From Candidatus Poribacteria bacterium (lineage in GTDB: Bacteria; Poribacteria; WGA-4E; JAJDTR01): a stretch of DNA of 64,000 nucleotides. The DNA lies in assembly GCA_965204085.1 (NCBI GenBank), contig CBDBEE010000003.1, positions 1,068,173 to 1,132,172 of the forward strand, in the 5' to 3' direction. This document shows positions 1 to 13,730 of this stretch, piece after piece. The notes below the pieces were generated by a model. That model saw only the letters and a program-made list of their open reading frames with translations, searched no databases and was not told the origin of the DNA. The translations under genes were made by a program, and so were the position numbers. Every line of letters begins with the position of its first letter. Position 1 is the stretch's first letter.

Positions 1-1481
1 AAATTCGTCATTTCCTAGCTTGGGTAAAGCCAACATTCTGGTGGTGCATCTTTACCTTTGTCTTGCTGTTTGTCATGCAGTGCATCAACGTGATAATTCG
101 TAAACGCTGGGTTGAACAGGAACGACTGGTGTATCCTATTGTTGAACTTCCTTACCAGATCGCCTGCAAAACCAATTCCTTCTTGCGCAACAAACCGATG
201 TGGTGGGGTTTTGCAATTGCGGCGTCCATCAGTCTCATCAACGGATTAAGTGTGTTATTTCCATCTATTCCATCCATTCCAAATAAGTCCATTCCGTTAC
301 AATCCCTGTTTTCTGAAAAACCGTGGACCGCCTTCTTGGCAGGAGGCAGTTCAATTATCATATATCCCTTTGCTGTCGGTCTCAGCTTTCTGATGCCACT
401 CGACCTGTTGGGATCGTGCCTCCTCTTTTTTCTTCTCTATAAGATACAAATTTTCATCGGGATTATGGCGGGGCTGGAGAAAATGCCCGGTTATCCTTTT
501 CCCTACGAGCAGAATATCGGTGCATATACAGGTATTTCCGTGATCGTACTTTGGAGCGCGCGCCGGCAGATTTGGCGGGCATTTCAACAAGCTATCAAAC
601 GTAAACCAACAGAAGATGCGTCTGAACCGATGCAGTATCGGACTGCGTTCTTGGGAATCCTGCTCGGAGGAATTTTTCTTGTCGGGTTCGGGATGAGAGG
701 GGGCATGGCACTGTGGATTGCCGTTCTGTTCTTCGCTGCCCATTTCCTGACAATTGCTATCGCCCTCACACGTATTCGCGCACAGATTGGTCTTTCAATC
801 CATAATACTACTTCCATTGGACCGCACCACAGTTTGGTCAGTCTGATTGGTACCCGCCGATTAGGTGCACAGAATCTCACATGGTTCTCCCTTTTCTTTT
901 GGTTTAACCGAGACAATCGTAGCCACCCGATGCCCCATCAACTGGAAGCGTTCAAGCTCGCCGAGCGTAGCAAACTCGATTCGAAGGGGTTATCCCGCTG
1001 GATGCTTGGCTTGATGGTCATCGCAATGCCGCTATGTATTGTGATGCTATTGGATACGTTTTATAAACTTGGCGTGGACTCGGGAAGGATAGGTGCACAA
1101 ATTAATAGTTTTGGAAGTCGTGCCTACCGCTTACTCCACCGTTCTTTCATCATGCCGCAAGACTCGCAGCCTGCACATGTCGCCGGCATGGTAATTGGGT
1201 TCGGTTTCACACTCCTATTGGCGGCCATTCGCAGCCGTCTGTTTTGGTGGCCGATTCACCCACTGGGTTATGGAGTTGCTTTCCATATTCACATGTTTTG
1301 GGCAGCTTTTACTATCGGTGCTATCACCAAGTGGTCACTACTAAAGTACGGAGGAATTGGACTCTATCGCAAAGCGGTCCCATTATTCATTGGGCTAGTG
1401 TTGGGAGACTTCACGGTTGGGAGCATTTGGAGCATCTTGGGAATTGCCTTAAACACACGCACGTACACGTTTTATTATTGA
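1..1481 (+). CDS. Polytopic integral membrane protein of unknown function, 5'-truncated by the window edge; paralog of 62690..64000
   Basis: The frame of the 63..1481 ORF stays open back to nt 3 (IRHFLAWVKPTFWWCIFTFVLLFVMQCINVIIRKRW). This aligns with LVEWGIPVLAWTAFIFALVSVMLCINIILRKQW in the ORF at the far end of the window. Many hydrophobic segments. Confidence 0.75.
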   Translation, partial: IRHFLAWVKPTFWWCIFTFVLLFVMQCINVIIRKRWVEQERLVYPIVELPYQIACKTNSFLRNKPMWWGFAIAASISLINGLSVLFPSIPSIPNKSIPLQSLFSEKPWTAFLAGGSSIIIYPFAVGLSFLMPLDLLGSCLLFFLLYKIQIFIGIMAGLEKMPGYPFPYEQNIGAYTGISVIVLWSARRQIWRAFQQAIKRKPTEDASEPMQYRTAFLGILLGGIFLVGFGMRGGMALWIAVLFFAAHFLTIAIALTRIRAQIGLSIHNTTSIGPHHSLVSLIGTRRLGAQNLTWFSLFFWFNRDNRSHPMPHQLEAFKLAERSKLDSKGLSRWMLGLMVIAMPLCIVMLLDTFYKLGVDSGRIGAQINSFGSRAYRLLHRSFIMPQDSQPAHVAGMVIGFGFTLLLAAIRSRLFWWPIHPLGYGVAFHIHMFWAAFTIGAITKWSLLKYGGIGLYRKAVPLFIGLVLGDFTVGSIWSILGIALNTRTYTFYY

Positions 1482-1943: not shown

Positions 1944-4900
1944 ATGACAGGACTGAATTCGCTGATAACATTGATTCTGTTCGGCGGCATCGCCTTTGCA
2001 CAAACGCCGCAGCCTATCGACCCGATGGAACAGGAGGTTACCCAAGGCGCGCTGCGCGTCAAAACCGAAGATGAGATTGTCGAATGTCCGTTGAAGCACA
2101 CTGATGTCAAGGCGATTATCTCCGGCTTCATCGCGCGCGTGACCGTGACTCAAACGTTCGACAATCCCTTTGACGACAAAATTGAGGCGGTTTACGTCTT
2201 CCCGCTGCCGCATACCGCCGTCGTGGACGACATGACAATGGTTATGGGCGAGCGACGGATCATCGGATTGATAAAGCGTCGGGATGAGGCGCGTGCCGTC
2301 TATGAGCGAGCAATCGAACAAGGAACAACGGCAAGCCTGCTTGAGCAGGAGCGACCGAATATCTTCACCCAATCGGTGGGCAACATCAAACCGGGGGAGG
2401 AAATCCGCATCGAAATCTCCTACGTCGATGTTCTCAACTACGACATGGGCAGCTACGAGTTTCATTTCCCGATGGTGGTCGGCCCCCGCTATATCCCAGG
2501 GATTCCGACTTCCAAAAAGCCCGATCTTCCAAAAGAATTAAAGGGGAAAGTTGGCGAATTAGAGGAGCCAGGAGTAGAAGGACCAGTGGAAGGGACTGTC
2601 CCATCGGGCACAGGCTGGTCGCCCGACACGACGCGCGTGCTGGACGCCTCGCGAATCACACCTCCAGTGCTCAAACCGGGCTATCGCACAGGGCACGACA
2701 TCAGTCTTTCGGTATCGCTCGAAGCGGGCGTGCCGGTCAAGGGTATCAATATTGTTAATCACAAAGCGATGCTCAAGCGGATTGGAGCGTCCGGTGCCGT
2801 CGCGGAAATCTCGCCCGAGGATTCAATTCCAAACAAGGATTTTGTGATGAAATACGCCATCGTCGGCGAAAAACCGGAGATGGCGGTTTTGGCGCATTCC
2901 AAGGGACCTGACCAAGGCTATTTCATGCTCATGATTCAGCCGAAACTTGATGCTGAACTTGCCGAAGCCCCTCCGCGCGAGATTGTTTTTCTCGTTGATG
3001 TTTCCGGTTCGATGGGAGGTGCACCGACGGAGAAGGTGAAAGAGGCGATGCGCCACTTTTTCCGTCTCAGCAAGCCAGACGACACCGTGCAGGTCATTAC
3101 CTTTGCCGGCAGCGCGAACAAACTGTTTGAAAGACCGGTCCCAGCGACAGAGGAGAATGTCAATCGCGCCCTAAACTTCACGCAGCAGATTCGCGCCGGT
3201 GGTGGAACGGAGATGCTCAAAGGAATTAAAGTGGTGCTCAACGAGCCGGTAGACCCAGAACGGGTGCGTATTGTCGTGATGCTCACGGATGGCTATATCG
3301 GCAACGAGGCGGAGATTATTGAAGAGGTCGGAAAACGCGCCGGTGACCAAATTCGATTTTGGGCAATCGGCATCGGTTCATCGCCCAACCGCTTCCTGAC
3401 TGACGGCGTAGCAAAACAGAGCGGCGGGATGTCCGGGGTGCTTGAGCTTGATACCGACCCAAAGGAGTTGGTGACGCAGATTGTCAAGCGGATTCACAGG
3501 GCGCAACTTGCCAAGATCCAGATTGACTGGAATGAACTGCCCGTCTACGAGATCTTTCCGCGTCGGATCCCAGAACTGTGGGCGGGCCGCCCGGTCATCC
3601 TGTTTGGACGCTATGCGGATGGAGGACAAACACAGATTAAATTGTCAGGTGTCGCAGAGGGGAAACCGCTCTCATATGCACTGGACGTAGCCCTTCCGCG
3701 TGCGCAACCGGAACATGGCGTTCTCTCCAAGACGTGGGCACGAAAGAAAATTGAGGACATCTCGGCGCAGATGTTCTATGCCGATACCCCTGAAGTGATA
3801 GAGGAAATCACGCAGGTAGCACTCACCTATCGGCTGATGAGCCAATACACCAGTTTCGTCGCCGTGGATGAGAGCGAAGTGCAACTCGCGAGTCAGGTGG
3901 CGAAACCGCCTCGTCGGGTGCCGGTGCCATTACCGGCTGGAGTTGAGTTCGATGGCATCTTTGGGGGACATGTCGCTGTCGAAGAGTACGCAAGCCGTCC
4001 GTTAATGCGATCGTCTCGAGCAGGGAGCCTTACCCTTTCATATTCACCTACTTCAGCACAGGCTCCGAGTGGCGTCAGAGCGTCGCGCGTGAATGTTTCC
4101 GCACGGTATGGTCAGCAAACAGTGACGAGGCCAAGGGCTGCACGGGGGCTAATGTCATCTTCTGCTTCCTTTACACCCACAAGAGAGGCATCATCAAGAA
4201 TTGTTAAGGAATTCCCTTCAACCATTAGCCAAACGAGCGCGCCTGGGGAAATTACTCGAGTCCCGCGGGATGGCGCCAGGGCTGGGTTGTCACTCGACAT
4301 GGTAGAACATCAAGATTTGGGACACACCCTATTCGATCAGTGGTCGATAAAAAGGCGCGAAGATGCACAAAAAGCATTGGCGGAGGCAAAAGAGTTGCAG
4401 AAACAGGGTGAGTTCGAAGCGGCAGGACTTCGGTATCAGCACGTGCTGGCACTACAAGCTGACATGCTAGGTAGCAATGACACGGTGATAGAGGCAATTT
4501 TGACCACAACGGAGGAGATTGGAAAACGACGCGCCCAAACTCACCCGCGCTTGAACCGAAAACTTGACCTCATTCTTCGGAATCAACCGCTTGACGATGC
4601 GATTCGTACCGTCGTCGAAGCGGGCGAACTCCAACTTGAACTCGTTAATGGTAGTCTTCAAGATGTCGCCGAGTTACTAAATCTGCCAAAACTCCGGGTG
4701 ACATATCTTGACTTGCGCCATGCCACGATGATCCAAGCGCTGGACTGGCTGCTTGCGCCGTATCATCTAACTTGGCAAATGAAAGACGCAGACAGAATTA
4801 TAGTGGGCGCATCAAGGCGTCTACCGGCGTCATCCGCGTGGGGATACGCCGTCGCCGACCTTGCAATTCCCTCAGAGGATGAGATTGACAACATGGCTTC

Positions 4901-5888
4901 AGGGACAGACGTCGAAGAAGCACTGACAGACTTTCTTAACGGGATCAGAATTATCATTGGCCAGAAGGAAGATTCTGGGTTCATGCCCGGTTCGGCGGTG
5001 TTGATAGATGCGGGACGGTTGCTCGTCTACGGCGAGCCGCATACCCACGCATCAGTGAAGGCGTTTCTTGATGCATTGCGCGACGATCAACTTGATATCG
5101 TGAAAGTTTCCGGGCGTGATCTTTCAAGCGAAGAGCGTACATCTCTGAAAGCCTTGCAGCAGCTAACGGCGCAACGATGGCGGGCGCGTGCTGAAGCTCG
5201 CGAGAAGTGGACTGCCAATCAGGTGCGTCGCCGCATCGCGGCTGATTCGGACAAAGCATCTTGGCAGTTACTGGCAGATGCGGTTCGGGGCAGTGTTAAC
5301 CTTGAAGCCCTCACTACACTTCAAACCGCTTGGGACAACCCGCAGATTAAAGGGGTGGCTCCGCTGCTTGTGACGCGCGCCGCTTGGTGTATCGGCATGG
5401 CAGCGCGAGCTATTCCCAACGACCCGGAACTTACTACTCTTGCCGAGAAATCCCTCTCATCGGTGAAAGCGATGAAGGTGCTGAAGCCGGAAGACGACAA
5501 TTCCTCCGGCTATCTCGCCACTTTATACGCGGTGTTGCTGCTGGAAGATGGAAATGCTCGTGAAAGTCAGATCGACGATGCCGTCAAGTCGCTGATGAAG
5601 ATGCCCGAAAACTCCCCGCATTGGACCACACGCCTCATCACGCAAGGATGGTTTTCACCCTCTGTAGAGAACGATCTTTCCTTAATGGAGGCAATCTCGG
5701 CGCATCGGATTGGTGGAGATGACGGCGTTCTGCTGACCAGCCTGCTCGCCAAACGCCGCGGCGGTCAGTTGTGGCAAGCCTTCCGAGAGGAGATGCCATC
5801 TCTCATTAAAGTACGGCCGTTGAACGGTCATGTCGTGGTTCTCGTCAATCGGCTGGAGGGGTCGCCCTTGGCGTTTGGGTCGAAATAA
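1944..5888 (+). CDS. Secreted VIT domain + von Willebrand factor A (vWA) domain protein with a ~650-aa C-terminal extension
   Basis: N-terminal signal peptide. VIT-like block (KHTDVKAIISGFIARVTVTQTFDNPFDDKIEAVYVFPLP...LLEQERPNIFTQSVGNIKPGEEI). vWA MIDAS motif (VFLVDVSGSMGG) and LTDGYIGNE. The C-terminal half has coiled-coil/TPR-like text and an STN-like stretch (LDLRHATMIQALDWLLAPYHLTWQMKD). Confidence 0.8.
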   Translation: MTGLNSLITLILFGGIAFAQTPQPIDPMEQEVTQGALRVKTEDEIVECPLKHTDVKAIISGFIARVTVTQTFDNPFDDKIEAVYVFPLPHTAVVDDMTMVMGERRIIGLIKRRDEARAVYERAIEQGTTASLLEQERPNIFTQSVGNIKPGEEIRIEISYVDVLNYDMGSYEFHFPMVVGPRYIPGIPTSKKPDLPKELKGKVGELEEPGVEGPVEGTVPSGTGWSPDTTRVLDASRITPPVLKPGYRTGHDISLSVSLEAGVPVKGINIVNHKAMLKRIGASGAVAEISPEDSIPNKDFVMKYAIVGEKPEMAVLAHSKGPDQGYFMLMIQPKLDAELAEAPPREIVFLVDVSGSMGGAPTEKVKEAMRHFFRLSKPDDTVQVITFAGSANKLFERPVPATEENVNRALNFTQQIRAGGGTEMLKGIKVVLNEPVDPERVRIVVMLTDGYIGNEAEIIEEVGKRAGDQIRFWAIGIGSSPNRFLTDGVAKQSGGMSGVLELDTDPKELVTQIVKRIHRAQLAKIQIDWNELPVYEIFPRRIPELWAGRPVILFGRYADGGQTQIKLSGVAEGKPLSYALDVALPRAQPEHGVLSKTWARKKIEDISAQMFYADTPEVIEEITQVALTYRLMSQYTSFVAVDESEVQLASQVAKPPRRVPVPLPAGVEFDGIFGGHVAVEEYASRPLMRSSRAGSLTLSYSPTSAQAPSGVRASRVNVSARYGQQTVTRPRAARGLMSSSASFTPTREASSRIVKEFPSTISQTSAPGEITRVPRDGARAGLSLDMVEHQDLGHTLFDQWSIKRREDAQKALAEAKELQKQGEFEAAGLRYQHVLALQADMLGSNDTVIEAILTTTEEIGKRRAQTHPRLNRKLDLILRNQPLDDAIRTVVEAGELQLELVNGSLQDVAELLNLPKLRVTYLDLRHATMIQALDWLLAPYHLTWQMKDADRIIVGASRRLPASSAWGYAVADLAIPSEDEIDNMASGTDVEEALTDFLNGIRIIIGQKEDSGFMPGSAVLIDAGRLLVYGEPHTHASVKAFLDALRDDQLDIVKVSGRDLSSEERTSLKALQQLTAQRWRARAEAREKWTANQVRRRIAADSDKASWQLLADAVRGSVNLEALTTLQTAWDNPQIKGVAPLLVTRAAWCIGMAARAIPNDPELTTLAEKSLSSVKAMKVLKPEDDNSSGYLATLYAVLLLEDGNARESQIDDAVKSLMKMPENSPHWTTRLITQGWFSPSVENDLSLMEAISAHRIGGDDGVLLTSLLAKRRGGQLWQAFREEMPSLIKVRPLNGHVVVLVNRLEGSPLAFGSK

Positions 5889-8231: not shown

Positions 8232-8408
8232 CATTGACTATACTAACGCAAGTTGCTACCTATGACAAAGAAACCGAGTTTTTGGTTCACGTTTGCTAAA
8301 TTATAAGCAAATTGGGCTGACTTTAGTCAATTTCGTGTTTCCACGTTGGAAAAAACTCGGTTTCTGCGCTTCGTCGGACAAAGGTGGCAACTTGGGTATA
8401 CTAATTTC
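8232..8408. repeat. Family-A long-hairpin MITE-like element, copy 1
   Basis: caagttgctacc...agaaaccgagtttttggttcacgt pairs with acgttggaaaaaactcggtttct...ggtggcaacttg. About 85% identical to 13563..13730. Confidence 0.75.
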
Positions 8409-8632: not shown

Positions 8633-8914
8633 TTAACCTTGAAGCAACGGAGACATGATTGATTCGACGGGAGGTGCCGGCACATCAAAGTCTGGGAACA
8701 GCCAGAGTTGGTCTGCTACACCTGCGGTGTCCTCAACGGATGGTTCATTGAACGGAATCGCCGGGTCAGCCCAGAGTTCCATCCCTTGTACGATCGGATT
8801 AGAGGTGACGCGAGCAAGGATTCGGGTGCGACGTTCGGGGTCGAGCGTTTCTCCGGTGAAGACCTCGCGCATCAGTTGTATGAGTGTGTCGGTAGATAGG
8901 TCGGCTTTCATCAT
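8633..8914 (-). CDS. 93-aa soluble protein: Cys-less anti-sigma-like N-terminus plus a QLWLF clamp-binding-type motif
   Basis: ATGA start/stop overlap with the upstream clamp-like gene. The N-terminus (LIQLMREVFTGETLDPERRTRILARV) follows the xGELxxxERxxxxxHL pattern of anti-sigma domains but lacks the His/Cys zinc ligands. The C-terminal part contains DQLWLFPDF. Confidence 0.6.
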   Translation of the reverse strand: MMKADLSTDTLIQLMREVFTGETLDPERRTRILARVTSNPIVQGMELWADPAIPFNEPSVEDTAGVADQLWLFPDFDVPAPPVESIMSPLLQG

Positions 8915-10032
8915 CTCATGGGCATAACAACATATTGAAAGTTTTGCGCCAATTCAAGGCGCATTGAATCAGTCGGCTCCGGGCGCATCCAGAATGTGAC
9001 TTCGGTTGTATCTGCCCGCAGGAGCGCTTCTTCAATGAATCTGGCATCGAACGCCGCCGCTGTATCCGTCCCTTCATATTGAATCGGTACGCAAGCTTTC
9101 GAATTTCCCCAGCGCGTACTGTTTTCAACAGTCAGTTGTTCACCACTTACGCGAAACTCCGTGCGGTTGTACGGGTCGTCGTTTCCCAAGCGGATGGCTC
9201 TGAGCGCCCACAGTAGTTCTTCGCGGTTCACCTTGACACACAGATTAGCGCTAGTCGCTTTTTCAAGCACCCACTTATAATCCGGGAAATCCCCTTCCGG
9301 CAAGAGGCAGCTTAACGAAACCCCTTCAACCTCAAAACCCATGGCGTTCTCAGTGAAGCGGAGACGGCAGATTTTCGGATTCAGGGATCCTATCAAATCA
9401 ATCATCTTCATGCAAGCGGCATAAGGCATTGCCCGCATCGGCATCGGGGGCTCTGTGTCGACTGGCTTAGCTGTTGATGGCAAAGTGACCATCGCCATCC
9501 GTCTGCCATTGGTGGTTACGATTCGATCTTCGCCGTCCTGTCGATGAAAAAGCACTCCCGTAAGGAAGGGACGTTGTTTTGCTTCGTCCGCGTCTGATAG
9601 CTGCACCGAGGCGAACAGAACAGATTTCAGAGCCGCTCCGAACTGCGACGCTTGGATCTCACCTCCGGGCGCGTTGACCAACTCCGCAAGTGCGGGATCT
9701 CTCCATTTCTCCGCGTGCGTTCGCACCGTATGTCGATGCTGATCACCTTCGACATCCAAACACCGATGCCATTGGTGGTGACTGAATCGCAGTGTGTCAC
9801 CGACCGCGTGATTGCAAATACGCGACAGCGTATCCGGAGGAAGGGTTGCCTTACCGGGGGATTCGACATCGACTGGAATTACATGGTCGATACTGAACTT
9901 ACCATCGTCGGTGTAGCATTGAGACCGTAACTGCGCATCTCCCGCAGTCATCGACAGATGCGTTCCCGGTTCATCAATCTTCAAAAGCGTCAAGGCACGT
10001 TTTAGAGTAGCCACGTTACAGGTAAATATCAT
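8911..10032 (-). CDS. Highly divergent DNA polymerase III beta sliding-clamp (DnaN-like) paralog
   Basis: Collinear with E. coli DnaN by eye: MIFTCNVATLKRAL (MKFTVEREHLLKPL), FLTGVLFHRQDGEDRIVTTNGRRMA (YLNGMLFETEGEELRTVATDGHRLA), LPEGDFPDYKWVL (LVDGRFPDYRRVL), C-terminal YVVMPMR (YVVMPMRL). GGAGGAA RBS upstream. No dnaA/recF/gyrB nearby. Confidence 0.75.
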   Translation of the reverse strand: MIFTCNVATLKRALTLLKIDEPGTHLSMTAGDAQLRSQCYTDDGKFSIDHVIPVDVESPGKATLPPDTLSRICNHAVGDTLRFSHHQWHRCLDVEGDQHRHTVRTHAEKWRDPALAELVNAPGGEIQASQFGAALKSVLFASVQLSDADEAKQRPFLTGVLFHRQDGEDRIVTTNGRRMAMVTLPSTAKPVDTEPPMPMRAMPYAACMKMIDLIGSLNPKICRLRFTENAMGFEVEGVSLSCLLPEGDFPDYKWVLEKATSANLCVKVNREELLWALRAIRLGNDDPYNRTEFRVSGEQLTVENSTRWGNSKACVPIQYEGTDTAAAFDARFIEEALLRADTTEVTFWMRPEPTDSMRLELAQNFQYVVMPMR

Positions 10033-10116
10033 CGTTTCCTCCCCACCCGCAGAGTAAGCCTTCAGAAGTGTCGTTTCAGATGGATGCCTCCTTGGGTGTG
10101 TTTTTTCGGTCCGAGA

Positions 10117-10707
10117 TTAGAACAGGTCTTCGATTGATATGCCCCTCTGTTTGAGTAGTCGCAACACTTCATTGTGTAAAGCATTTCGCGCGCGCTGCCG
10201 AAGCGATTTGACGGCGATTTCACTCCGTTGGATAATTTGTGCAATTTCCCTGTTCGGTATATTTTCCAACTCGCCCAACACGAGCACTGTGCGGTCGATT
10301 GGTCGTAACCCAAGTAGGGCTGCCTGCAAGAACTCCCTGCTTTCAGCGCGTATTAATGGCTTGAGCGGAGAATCTGTTGAAACCAACGGAATAGCCAACA
10401 CCTGCTCCATATCTTCCGAAGTCTTCTTATCGAACGATATCGTTGGGTGTTGTTGGCGCCGGCGTAACAGGTCGATACACCCATTGTAGGCGATGCGAAA
10501 CAGCCATGAACGTACCGCTGCCGTGTCGAGCAACTCGGACCAACCCTGGTACGCTCGGAGAAACGTCTCGGCGGTCATGTCCTCTGCGTCTGTCGGGTTT
10601 CCCAACAGTCGGAGAACAAACCGATAAATGGCGTCAACATTCGACTCATACACTTCAATGAATGATTCATCCACAGATGAAGCACCTCGTTGGCTTCGCA
10701 CTCTCAA
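10117..10707 (-). CDS. ECF-type (group 4) RNA polymerase sigma-70 factor
   Basis: Region 2 (AEDMTAETFLRAYQGW...VRSWLFRIAYNGCIDLLRRR) and region 4 HTH (NREIAQIIQRSEIAVKSLRQRARNAL). Confidence 0.9.
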   Translation of the reverse strand: MRVRSQRGASSVDESFIEVYESNVDAIYRFVLRLLGNPTDAEDMTAETFLRAYQGWSELLDTAAVRSWLFRIAYNGCIDLLRRRQQHPTISFDKKTSEDMEQVLAIPLVSTDSPLKPLIRAESREFLQAALLGLRPIDRTVLVLGELENIPNREIAQIIQRSEIAVKSLRQRARNALHNEVLRLLKQRGISIEDLF

Positions 10708-10750
10708 GGTTATATGACGAAATAATCGGGTGAAGGCATCGGGAAATCGG

Positions 10751-10823: not shown

Positions 10824-11633
10824 ATGATAAAATTGGGTACGATGTCATTGAATCTCAGGAATATTGTTGCTACTGAATTTGCGCGGATTGTTTATGAACT
10901 CGGCTTTGATGTCATCGAATTGCATACCAGTGCTTTTGAATCGACAGATATCGGGTATCTTCGTGAACTGAAGATGGAGTTGACGAAAAAAGGTCTGCCG
11001 CTCGGCTATATCGGCATTAGCAACAATTTTGGCCGTCCGGTTGATGAACATCCGGAGCAGATTGCGTTAATCAAAAAGTGGATCGATGTAGCGGATTTCA
11101 TGTGTTGCCCGCTCGTGAGAGTCTTCGGAGCTTATATACCTGAAGACTGCGAAGATGAAGAGGCACTCTGGTCACCGATGATTGCCGGATTCCAAGAGGT
11201 CGCCGATTATGGCTACGAAAAGGGCATCTTAGTCGGGTTACAGAACCACAACCACAACAACGTCACACGCACCGGTGAAGATTTGCTGCGCGCCCTTCGG
11301 GAAACCGATCGTCCCTATTTTACACACATCCTAGACACGGGGCAATATGCGGGGTCGCCCGGTGCCAGCGGTCATCGGGGCTCGTCCCATCCCGACTACG
11401 ATTGCTATGATAGTATTGCGAAAACGGCGCCCTACGCCGTGTATGTGCGCACGAAGTTTTATCGCATCGACAGCGGTGTCGAAGAGTGGCTCGATTATCC
11501 GCGGATTCTTGACATTCTGGTTGAGGTCGGTTACAATGGTTGCCTCTCCATCGTGTACGAAGGGGAGTCGAATGCGATTGACTCTATGGAAAAAGCGGCG
11601 AAGTATTTGCGGACCATCATTAATGCTTTATAG
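10824..11633 (+). CDS. Sugar phosphate isomerase/epimerase (xylose isomerase-like TIM barrel)
   Basis: Length and motif pattern typical of the AP_endonuc_2/xylose-isomerase-like family (FDVIELH..., VRVFGAY, GLQNHNH, LSIVYEG). Confidence 0.7.
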   Translation: MIKLGTMSLNLRNIVATEFARIVYELGFDVIELHTSAFESTDIGYLRELKMELTKKGLPLGYIGISNNFGRPVDEHPEQIALIKKWIDVADFMCCPLVRVFGAYIPEDCEDEEALWSPMIAGFQEVADYGYEKGILVGLQNHNHNNVTRTGEDLLRALRETDRPYFTHILDTGQYAGSPGASGHRGSSHPDYDCYDSIAKTAPYAVYVRTKFYRIDSGVEEWLDYPRILDILVEVGYNGCLSIVYEGESNAIDSMEKAAKYLRTIINAL

Positions 11634-11709: not shown

Positions 11710-12360
11710 GTGGATAGAGGCGCGTTAACCGTGCGGGATAAAACGTGGTTTACCATTGACGGCACAATAGAGCCGATTGACTTCTCCGGTCCGAGTTTTT
11801 TCCGATTCCCACTAGAACTGGCAGAGTTTGTTATGAATCGATTTTCCAATCCCGGAGACTGGGTTCTCGACCCGTTCTGTGGATTTGGGACGACGATGGT
11901 AGCGGCGCAGAATTTAGGATGTCAAGCGATCGGATTTGAGAAAAATCATCAACGAGCTGATTTTGCTGCCAATCGGGTGCTACCTCCAAGTCGTGTACTT
12001 ACCGAAGACAGTCGGTATATCCTAGAATACGAGCTGCCGTCTTTCGATCTTCTTTTCACAAGTCCGCCCTATTTGAGTCTTCGCGATGAAAAAACCGAGC
12101 AACCCGTGCAGGAGTACGTGATCGACCTTGTCAAGACCTTTGAAGCAATTCGCGGTTGCATGAAACCCCGAAGTAAGGTCGTGATTGAACTATCCAATGT
12201 TAGCAAGGCGGACGGCATCCGACCAACACTGTGGGAAGCGGGGCGGGCACTTTCGGAACTCTTTTGCCTTGAAGATGAACTGGTGCGGTGCAATACAGGA
12301 ATAGAGTTGGCGGGTCCAGGCTACAATCATTCGACATTGCTCGTCTTTCGGGTTGACTGA
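11710..12360 (+). CDS. Small SAM-dependent methyltransferase with N4/N6 DNA-MTase-type motifs (orphan)
   Basis: RFPLELAEFVMNRFSNPGDWVLDPFCGFGTTMVAAQNLGCQAIGFEKN (motif I region, as in the N6_N4_Mtase family), followed ~45 aa later by LLFTSPPYLSL (motif IV). GTG start. Confidence 0.65.
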   Translation: MDRGALTVRDKTWFTIDGTIEPIDFSGPSFFRFPLELAEFVMNRFSNPGDWVLDPFCGFGTTMVAAQNLGCQAIGFEKNHQRADFAANRVLPPSRVLTEDSRYILEYELPSFDLLFTSPPYLSLRDEKTEQPVQEYVIDLVKTFEAIRGCMKPRSKVVIELSNVSKADGIRPTLWEAGRALSELFCLEDELVRCNTGIELAGPGYNHSTLLVFRVD

Positions 12361-13503: not shown

Positions 13504-13562
13504 GAGCCTAATTAAATCAGAATAGTCAACCCGTTTTTGGGCGTTCGAGTAGCAATTGACGC

Positions 13563-13730
13563 AAGTTGCTACCTTTAACAGAGAAACCGAGTTTTTGGTT
13601 CACGTTCGCTAAATTATAGATAAATTAGTCTGATATTCGTCAATCTCGTGGCTCCACGTTGGAAAAAACTCGGTTTCTGTGCCCCTGTCGAACAAAGGTA
13701 GTAACTTGGGCTAATTACTTTGAAGATTCC
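13563..13730. repeat. Family-A long-hairpin MITE-like element, copy 2
   Basis: Same arms as 8232..8408 (gcaagttgctaccttt...gagaaaccgagtttttggttcacg / cacgttggaaaaaactcggtttctg...aaaggtagtaacttgg). Confidence 0.75.

Follow-up and report, generated by a model that had tools for sequence, protein, structure and literature searches.

The 64-kb stretch of Candidatus Poribacteria DNA analyzed here (the window, whose positions serve as coordinates throughout) carries three consecutive genes on its minus strand, which according to the listing of open reading frames (ORFs) encode, in this order, an extracytoplasmic function (ECF) sigma factor, a diverged paralog of the beta sliding clamp DnaN and a 93-aa partner protein. 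The trio is an obligatory three-gene association in three deeply diverged lineages (A, which includes the window, B and C). Its sequences suggest that the three genes form a self-activating ECF sigma module, with a dedicated beta-clamp paralog that does not serve replication as the docking hub for the sigma factor and its regulator, a reading to which we give a probability of roughly 0.4. Double docking in the pockets of a clamp dimer is proposed because the association is obligatory, the peptide-binding pocket of the clamp looks intact, both partners carry conserved clamp-type motifs and the operon has a predicted autoregulated promoter. An earlier note on this DNA, made from the sequence alone, had suggested that an anti-sigma-like 93-aa protein is tethered to, or titrated by, the clamp; this mechanism seems incomplete, since it missed the conserved tail of the sigma factor itself.

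Clamp Paralog

The 373-aa product of the middle gene had been described in the earlier note as a very diverged clamp, and both profile and structure comparisons bear this out. The DnaN model TIGR00663 matches residues 41-373 with 86.4 bits, below its equivalog cutoff of 137.65, and the Pfam models beta_2 and beta_3 score 31 and 17.8 bits, respectively, with no match to the Pfam model of the N-terminal beta-clamp domain. The best profile match is the processivity-factor family PHROG 947, which covers the full length with 108 bits, and beta clamps of the PDB match with E-values of 1e-16 to 1e-8. An AlphaFold2 (AF2) model built from 22 family members (predicted local distance difference test, pLDDT, 82.7; predicted template-modeling score, pTM, 0.81) consists of three repeated beta-alpha-beta modules, and Foldseek aligns it full-length to the beta clamps of E. 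coli, Pseudomonas and Rickettsia (E ~1e-26, template-modeling score 0.75-0.85, 17-20% identity), with a score of 0.80-0.85 over the full length of E. coli beta. The model thus predicts that the three-domain beta-clamp fold is present in the 373-aa protein.

At the sequence level the paralog is ~20-27% identical to canonical clamps, and three of its relatives (P0098, P0103 and P0105) reach 92, 133 and 111 bits with TIGR00663, compared with 216-286 bits for canonical clamps. Its gene is always found in the order sigma-clamp-partner and never beside dnaA (locus L027 served as the canonical comparison), and the window likewise holds no dnaA, recF or gyrB next to the trio, as the earlier note had observed. 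The protein therefore has the fold of DnaN, yet it lies below the DnaN equivalog score and outside the DnaN genomic context. That it is nevertheless the sole housekeeping DnaN of its host, linked to the sigma gene by accident, is hardly credible. Such a reading could draw on the fact that a canonical dnaN has not been shown in any Poribacteria genome: none with this label is among the ten best canonical representatives, no scan of the genome collection having been aimed at it, and the dnaA-dnaN-dciA locus P0053 comes without an assigned organism. However, the profile score and the gene context just given argue against it, as do the predicted autoregulated ECF promoter driving the clamp gene, the sharp isolation of the family from the DnaN continuum (both below) and the NCBI name “hypothetical protein” of the lineage-B members.

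The peptide-binding pocket was compared by aligning the family to E. coli beta, using an E. coli sequence that agrees with the PDB alignment and the pocket residues of E. coli beta-peptide structures. The equivalents of R152, T172, G174, R176 and M362 are invariant and those of P242 and P363 nearly so; L155, H175, L177, V247 and V360 have conservative replacements. The pocket, which lies between domains II and III, is also retained in lineages B and C. By this alignment the clamp paralog keeps the canonical peptide-binding pocket.

Sigma Factor and Its C-Terminal Tail

The first gene was correctly identified in the earlier note as an ECF sigma factor, whereas the start assigned to it does not hold. 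The ORF can be read from a TTG at 10707 (10117-10707, 196 aa), as had been proposed, but the start is almost certainly the GTG at 10674, giving 185 aa, because an ACGAGGT ribosome-binding site followed by GTG is common to all orthologous loci and independent public gene callers have recorded the identical 185-aa product. The protein matches the Pfam models Sigma70_r2 (60.2 bits) and r4_2 (36.9 bits) and scores 82 bits with TIGR02937, the cutoff being 42.9, so that it belongs with the ECF (group IV) sigma factors, which have regions 2 and 4 only. No cutoff of a specific equivalog or subfamily in Pfam or NCBIfam is reached, and weak matches to PhyR domains reflect generic sigma similarity only.

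The alignment with B. subtilis SigW stops at residue 170 of the 185, three residues short of the SigW C-terminus, so that the last ~15 residues appear to form an extension past region 4.2. In the window this tail ends in SIEDLF, and the pattern [ST][IL]xDL[FL]-COOH closes all 22 of 22 lineage-A sigma factors. The C-termini read D[VL]KDFL[SI] in lineage B and NLDDLL(SEL/K) in lineage C, and in the alignment of the sigma factors of the three lineages (41-43% identity) the Asp of a shared φ-x-D-φ-φ pattern is invariant. A tail that is both conserved and similar to a clamp-binding epitope points to a direct contact between sigma factor and clamp.

Partner Protein

The earlier note had also drawn attention to a DQLWLFPDF peptide near the C-terminus of the 93-aa protein (residues 68-76) and to the absence of Cys and His, and both are found. 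The beta-clamp-binding consensus is QL[SD]LF (as cited in PMC12867686), and the peptide fits a clamp-binding motif (CBM) of the QL[SD]LF/QLxLxL type by sequence. Among 44 partner orthologs (43 clusters in all), [QP][LPF]WLF occurs in 43 and QLWLF in 38, and the motif has counterparts in both remote lineages, QLPLF[PL]E in lineage B and QLFLNL in lineage C, so that it is conserved well beyond the window. It lies in a region in which a flexible CBM would be expected: residues 50-93 have no predicted secondary structure (block-mean pLDDT 40-55), the C-terminal half is acidic and Pro-rich (9 D/E, 0 K/R and 8 P in 53 residues), and L72, F73 and P74 never change, although the disordered stretch around them varies. 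The remaining invariant positions of the 44 orthologs are D5, F19, R29, I32, R35 and W48.

A second candidate motif is found at the N-terminus, where about 24 of the 44 orthologs carry QxD[LF]F, 3 carry KADLF and 17 carry [KR][AT]DLS, with the Asp at position 5 invariant throughout; the first of these forms fits the N-terminal CBM consensus Qx[DE][LM]F of Mor and MuC (PMC12867686). The subclade of the window has the degenerate form KADLS.

The AF2 model of the partner (mean pLDDT 56) contains helices at residues 8-19 and 26-37, two short turns and a disordered C-terminal half, and the predicted helical hairpin holds the invariant F19, R29, I32 and R35. By eye, a segment of similar pattern can also be made out at the start of the third proteins of lineages B and C. 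In all lineages the gene lies downstream of the ECF sigma gene, and the two helices are predicted at low confidence. A relationship with known anti-sigma factors was sought and not found: the single protein has no match of any kind in Pfam or NCBIfam at E<=1, nor in PHROG, PADLOC or the PDB; the 44 orthologs and the cross-lineage N-terminal segments have none in Pfam at E<=10; and a cross-lineage N-terminal profile searched against the PDB and a Foldseek search with the AF2 model were negative. Having no Cys or His at all, it also lacks the HxxxCxxC zinc ligands of zinc-binding anti-sigma (ZAS) proteins. As far as sequence can tell, the partner thus falls outside the anti-sigma families by every available test. 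The label “anti-sigma-like” given in the earlier note consequently finds no backing in profile or fold matches; it gains some from the architecture of the lineage-C protein, in which a similar N-terminal segment is followed by a transmembrane helix and an extracytoplasmic GH123 part. The partner is likely to be a negative regulator because of the predicted hairpin, the position in the operon and the membrane-anchored form in lineage C.

Distribution and Divergent Lineages

A word-indexed search for the clamp family returned 54 clusters, in which identity falls from 45% directly to the ~25% of canonical DnaN. An exhaustive search of 1.84 billion representatives with a hidden Markov model gave full-length family members at 677, 673 and 546 bits, followed by the outliers P0103 and P0105 at 132 and 128 bits and by a canonical continuum at 118 bits or less, so that the family appears sharply isolated from DnaN in sequence space. 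P0103, P0105 and their relatives, which make up the remote lineages, sit directly behind an ECF sigma gene and are far more diverged (clamp 22-29% identical); NCBI names the outlier and related clamps, including those of lineage B, “hypothetical protein,” and two of the three named clusters are labeled Candidatus Poribacteria.

When each GTDB species was scanned through a single genome, 19 loci were found. Of these, 17 are labeled Candidatus Poribacteria, one lies on a 1.9-kb contig binned as Gammaproteobacteria and one on a contig of an “uncultured bacterium.” The 1.9-kb contig (L021; CAZYSR010000083.1, 1893 nt) carries the promoter, sigma gene and clamp gene of the operon in a metagenome-assembled genome labeled “uncultured Gammaproteobacteria,” a label that is probably a binning error. 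The sigma gene precedes the clamp gene in every locus long enough to judge, and a small ORF follows the clamp gene directly, usually with a 4-nt overlap, in all loci but L015 and L017, as judged with the ORF filter applied. The flanking genes differ between the loci of ~20 Poribacteria genomes, and an intrinsic terminator lies directly 3' of the small gene in many of them. The fixed gene order, the usual overlap, the differing flanks and the terminator together define a three-gene operon, and the synteny that the earlier note had made a test of its proposal is thus found in related genomes. The ratios of nonsynonymous to synonymous substitution rates (dN/dS) are 0.12-0.19 for the sigma gene, 0.17-0.25 for the clamp gene and 0.26-0.50 for the small gene, and show that purifying selection acts on all three.

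In lineage B the third protein has 117-127 aa and the layout NILKLMQATLGEVEFTDAIRNRISQRL...SEQLPLF[PL]E...FLWDFPP...LQLPLPGF. In three loci an inserted TumE-family toxin-antitoxin pair on the opposite strand separates the third gene from the clamp gene (L041 9208-9899, L042 2001-2692 and L043 1382-2016), and the third gene is kept intact despite the insertion. In lineage C the third gene overlaps the end of the clamp gene and encodes a 1063-aa protein (L038 5707-8898; partial in L044 2022-2153), which reads GIFELLKISLKREKLSEVKKESLYDRILAKI...SEQLFLNLG and continues with one hydrophobic transmembrane segment and then GH123 domains, the motif lying ~10-15 residues ahead of the transmembrane helix. 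From its sequence this protein appears to be laid out as is usual for anti-sigma factors that span the membrane. An hhalign comparison of the small-protein profile with the lineage-C N-terminus was not significant (probability ~1%), so that the homology of the two rests on position, pattern and motif. The GH123 fusion also suggests that glycan sensing could feed into the sigma/clamp module of lineage C.

Neighboring genes bear on two further explanations. The clamp could be a stress-inducible alternative for repair, translesion synthesis or recombination, for which the small protein would be an adaptor or inhibitor, the sigma tail being unrelated. The conservation of the very pocket that binds polymerases and repair factors, the predicted ECF promoter in front of the clamp gene and the best profile match to a processivity-factor family would all suit such a function. 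However, no repair, polymerase or nuclease gene is conserved beside the trio in any lineage, the co-conservation of sigma tail and clamp in three lineages would have to be coincidence, and the transmembrane-plus-GH123 form found in lineage C is not easily reconciled with an accessory of DNA repair, which makes a repair clamp improbable.

The other explanation concerns self-protection: the CBM protein would poison the replicative clamp in the manner of SocB, a toxin of Caulobacter that reportedly acts through this clamp, and the paralog would be an antidote or a drug-resistant spare similar to GriR of griselimycin producers. Small proteins with CBMs can be toxic by way of the clamp, overexpression of MuC being lethal (PMC12867686), and the known DnaN paralogs are self-resistance copies (PMC10817943). 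Yet with ~20-27% identity to canonical clamps the paralog is too diverged for a spare replicative clamp, no biosynthetic cluster lies near the trio in the window, PADLOC gives no match, and the ECF sigma factor, its tail and the transmembrane-GH123 fusion would be left unexplained. This possibility is very improbable, and the spare-clamp or self-resistance reading was rejected on the grounds of divergence and the missing cluster.

A phage or defense origin of the trio was considered as well and discarded. PADLOC and defense-system models do not match it, IMG/VR holds only generic phage clamps of 21-24% identity and no trio, and the chromosomal context is ordinary. The impression of the earlier note that the locus looks accessory is therefore not upheld, the trio being conserved across the clade.

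Operon Promoter

In the 19 loci the DNA upstream of the sigma gene cannot be aligned apart from a single strongly conserved block, TTTCGATGCCT-N13-TCGTCATATA, which is followed by the ribosome-binding site and the GTG. Each locus has one copy, and in the 64-kb window the pattern matches once, compared with 0.06 matches expected by chance. The counterparts are CGATGCTT-N13-TCGTCTTATA in lineage B (-10 also written TCGTCTTA) and CGATCCCA-N13-CCGTCTTATA in lineage C (-10 also written CCGTCTTA), so that a putative -35 element and a CGTC-type -10 element, as expected for an ECF sigma factor, stand ahead of its own operon in all loci of the three lineages. The block has the appearance of an autoregulated ECF promoter whose specificity is kept family-wide. 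A metagenome scan with TTYCGATGCCT-N13-TCGTCWTA gave eight matches, of which only the one in L033, the promoter of its own operon, is genuine; the other seven have no common downstream gene.

In a subclade of 58% identity the spacer between sigma and clamp gene contains an inverted repeat, GGCATCG...CGATGCC (L001 5916-6000, L016 4916-5000 and relatives), whose right arm equals the -35 heptamer of the promoter and sits just 5' of the ribosome-binding site of the clamp gene. As a conserved RNA hairpin this repeat was rejected, since RNAalifold gives -3.6 kcal/mol, essentially without covariation, and the repeat is absent from the subclade of the window (10033-10116).

Proposed Mechanism

In the mechanism proposed here, the clamp dimer would receive the tail of the sigma factor in one pocket and the QLxLF motif of the partner in another, as a counterpart of the “two arms” by which the clamp gp45 is held in the late-transcription complex of phage T4. 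The third protein would be a negative, anti-sigma-like regulator that grips the sigma factor via its helical hairpin, soluble in the lineage of the window and membrane-anchored with a sensor domain in one other. After release or removal of the regulator, the clamp would remain on the sigma tail and, if loaded by the host clamp loader at nicks or primer-template junctions, could tether or activate the sigma-RNA polymerase complex on DNA. The ECF response would thereby be coupled to the state of the DNA or of replication, as with gp45 of T4 and with phage Mu and its host clamp. The full version of this idea, a cellular counterpart of phage clamp-activated transcription in which a non-replicative clamp on DNA tethers or activates ECF sigma-RNA polymerase through the sigma tail and is gated by anti-sigma docking in the same pocket, is possible but on the unlikely side.

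Several observations weigh against this mechanism. The basic residues of the inner ring are poorly kept relative to E. coli beta (R73 to D, R80 to N/E, R205 to D), and the net charge of the inner helices, counted crudely as a proxy for DNA binding, is reduced in most paralogs, at -4 to +3 compared with +3/+4 in canonical clamps, so that encirclement of DNA is uncertain. Positions aligned to the dimer interface of E. coli differ as well (F106 to H, L273 to R/H). Unlike at T4 late promoters, a clear -35 element is present and region 4 forms part of the sigma factor, and thus the clamp is not obviously needed for promoter recognition. The sigma tail resembles just the DLF half of QL[SD]LF, and the profile and fold searches gave no known anti-sigma family for the small protein. 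No further regulon target was found near the loci, in the window or in the one metagenome scanned. Finally, the membrane-anchored partner of lineage C, as read from its sequence, would fit sequestration better than a co-activator role.

Pure sequestration, or a partner switch, which was the idea of the earlier note, is the main rival, if an unlikely one. Here the third protein would be the anti-sigma factor and the clamp no more than an off-DNA scaffold or decoy for its QLxLF motif and perhaps for the sigma tail, either stabilizing an inhibitory complex or titrating the anti-sigma factor away, with no role at promoters or on DNA. The third gene does hold the usual position of an ECF anti-sigma gene, a motif ~10-15 residues before the transmembrane helix of lineage C would hold the clamp at the membrane, a full -35/-10 promoter needs no activator, and the basic residues in the inner ring are poorly conserved. 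A precedent for partner switching is the PhyR-NepR-EcfG system, in which a short, largely helical, soluble anti-sigma factor binds either the sigma factor or a third protein. On the other hand, sequestration gives no reason for three deeply diverged lineages to keep a complete three-domain clamp, its pocket intact, where any small adaptor would do. A single autoregulated operon yields the components in a fixed ratio, so that titration would need an outside input, and none has been identified; moreover, the tail of the sigma factor suggests that it stays clamp-bound. That a complete clamp and its pocket have been kept over deep divergence, together with this tail, therefore favors a clamp that is more than a scaffold, in line with the docking-hub module.

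Operon Layout and Neighborhood

All three co-directional ORFs of the earlier note (10117-10707, 8911-10032 and 8633-8914) are present, and so are the 84-nt gap between the sigma and clamp genes and the ATGA overlap of clamp stop and 93-aa start, which suggests translational coupling. The features of the operon are collected in Table 1.

Table 1. Features of the sigma-clamp-partner operon in the window.
Feature	Position	Strand	Remarks
Predicted ECF-type promoter	10713..10741	(-)	-35 CGATGCCT 10741-10734, 13-nt spacer, -10 TCGTCATA 10720-10713
ECF sigma factor, 185 aa	10117..10674	(-)	GTG start 10674; GAGG ribosome-binding site 10685-10688
Sigma C-terminal extension LRLLKQRGISIEDLF	10120..10164	(-)	Acidic-hydrophobic tail end; candidate clamp-binding epitope
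Diverged beta-sliding-clamp paralog, 373 aa	8911..10032	(-)	TIGR00663, PHROG 947, AF2 and Foldseek
Partner protein, 93 aa	8633..8914	(-)	ATGA-coupled to clamp gene; no known family
KADLS, residues 3-7	8894..8908	(-)	Degenerate copy of the N-terminal Qx-D-[LF]-F motif of orthologs
Helical hairpin, residues 8-37, TDTLIQLMREVFTGETLDPERRTRILARVT	8804..8893	(-)	Candidate sigma-binding (anti-sigma-like) segment
GMELW, residues 44-48	8771..8785	(-)	Short hydrophobic motif; x[ML][ED][LF]W in all orthologs, W48 invariant
QLWLFPDF, residues 69-76	8687..8710	(-)	Clamp-binding-motif-like peptide; DQLWLFPDF is residues 68-76
SPLL near C-terminus	8642..8653	(-)	CBM-like hydrophobic motif; FSLF/FSLPL in other orthologs

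The surroundings of the trio are ordinary chromosomal genes, with an ABC transporter, a xylose-isomerase-like TIM barrel, a DNA methyltransferase and a dehydrogenase as neighbors. The TIM-barrel gene (10824-11633, plus strand) is divergent from the sigma gene and adjoins the gene of a short, 216-aa N6/N4 DNA methyltransferase (11710-12360, plus strand), whose Pfam match is confined to model positions 165-219 of 221; the methyltransferase also matches type II methyltransferase defense models, with no nuclease partner close by. The same pair flanks the trio in L002 and L012, where a type I restriction-modification system and a Fic gene are found nearby. Unrelated to the trio are a 1314-aa VIT and von Willebrand A protein (1944-5888, plus strand) and the DUF6785/DUF6784 protein beside it (63-1481, plus strand).

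Downstream of the trio, the earlier note had seen a miniature inverted-repeat transposable element (MITE) and a remnant of an insertion sequence. The former is real: it lies at 8246-8396, has a second copy in the window (13559-13710, 85.5% identical) and a third in another Poribacteria genome (L004 1299-1449), and is ~150 nt long (152 nt); it has terminal inverted repeats (CAAGTTGCTACC...GGTAGCAACTTG) as well as a 15-nt inverted repeat in its interior. The insertion-sequence remnant is without Pfam support.

Relation to Known Systems and Meaning

The earlier note knew of no described system of this kind, which stands for cells and for dedicated paralogs: in the literature searched, neither cellular clamp-coupled transcription nor a dedicated clamp paralog of this sort was found, nor, apart from T4 and Mu, any sigma factor bearing a CBM, and the DnaN paralogs described there are only resistance or second replicative copies. 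The main text of the ECF re-classification likewise names no ECF group with a clamp or DnaN neighbor (PMC7826278). For phages it does not stand, since clamp-coupled transcription has been described for both T4 and Mu.

T4 late transcription couples the clamp gp45 to the sigma-family protein gp55 and to gp33, a co-activator and repressor (PMC2988020; PMC7892883). As with gp55, the sigma factor of the trio would carry a short acidic-hydrophobic clamp epitope on a C-terminal linker, and as with gp33, which is inhibitory alone, a small second protein has its own clamp-binding motif, so that two arms would meet a ring clamp as the third component (PMC2988020; PMC7892883). As judged from sequence, acidic-hydrophobic or CBM-like peptides are conserved in both the sigma factor and the partner, which is the T4-type pattern. 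There are also differences: the T4 clamp is replicative, trimeric and PCNA-like, whereas the trio has a dedicated, diverged paralog of DnaN fold on a cellular chromosome, and region 4 is missing from gp55, as is a -35 element from T4 late promoters, whereas the ECF sigma factor is complete and its predicted promoter has both elements. No homology with gp55 or gp33 was found, the PHROG matches being to generic sigma and DnaN-type clamp families. The resemblance is one of analogy rather than membership, the module being known here from its sequence.

In phage Mu, transcription is coupled to the host beta clamp by MuC, which carries N- and C-terminal CBMs (QHDLF and QPDLF; family consensus Qx[DE][LM]F), and a bare N-terminal DLF is required for function and is sufficient in Mor (PMC12867686). 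Many partner orthologs similarly have QxDLF at their beginning and QLWLF toward their end, although the N-terminal motif of the window ortholog is degenerate (KADLS). Unlike the trio, with its ECF sigma factor, private clamp and a small protein that does not look DNA-binding, MuC binds DNA and activates transcription together with sigma70 and the host clamp, and Pfam gives no homology of the small protein to Mor or MuC.

Compared with pairs of ECF sigma and class I anti-sigma factors (SigR-RsrA, RpoE-ChrR, SigW-RsiW and RpoE-RseA), the trio shares the autoregulated operon with the sigma gene first and the regulator downstream, as well as an N-terminal helical segment with a pattern similar to xGE.L..E.R..I..R, to which lineage C adds a transmembrane helix and an extracytoplasmic domain. 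It departs from them in the clamp gene placed between sigma and regulator genes, in the clamp-binding-like motifs of both proteins and in a partner that has just two long predicted helices, no zf-HC2, RskA or other anti-sigma profile and no Cys/His ligands. The likeness to PhyR-NepR-EcfG is conceptual, in that a small regulator would be shared by sigma factor and clamp; in that system the place of the clamp is taken by a response regulator that has a sigma-like domain, and there is no homology. GriR-type clamps are much closer to canonical DnaN than the paralog described here. The extra DnaN copies of the GriR and mycoplanecin clusters confer antibiotic self-resistance (PMC10817943). They too are second DnaN-fold genes outside the dnaA-dnaN locus, but they are functional replicative clamps within biosynthetic clusters, whereas the paralog lies in an ECF operon with no such cluster.

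Sliding clamps are the tool-belts of replication and repair. A role in transcription has been documented only in phages T4 and Mu, both of which borrow the replicative clamp (PMC2988020; PMC7892883; PMC12867686). The trio may represent a novel mode of ECF regulation, a cellular analogue of this phage strategy. For annotation and the counting of marker genes it suggests caution, since the DnaN-fold proteins of the trio do not appear to be replicative clamps. As a compact three-protein system, it could be reconstituted in vitro to study the communication between clamp and RNA polymerase and the fate of a clamp paralog freed from replication. If the proposal is true, no sliding clamp before the paralog would have been dedicated to the control of transcription, clamp-coupled transcription would not be confined to phages, and ECF regulation could read the state of the DNA, such as nicks, gaps and forks, which would be a new mode for the largest family of alternative sigma factors.

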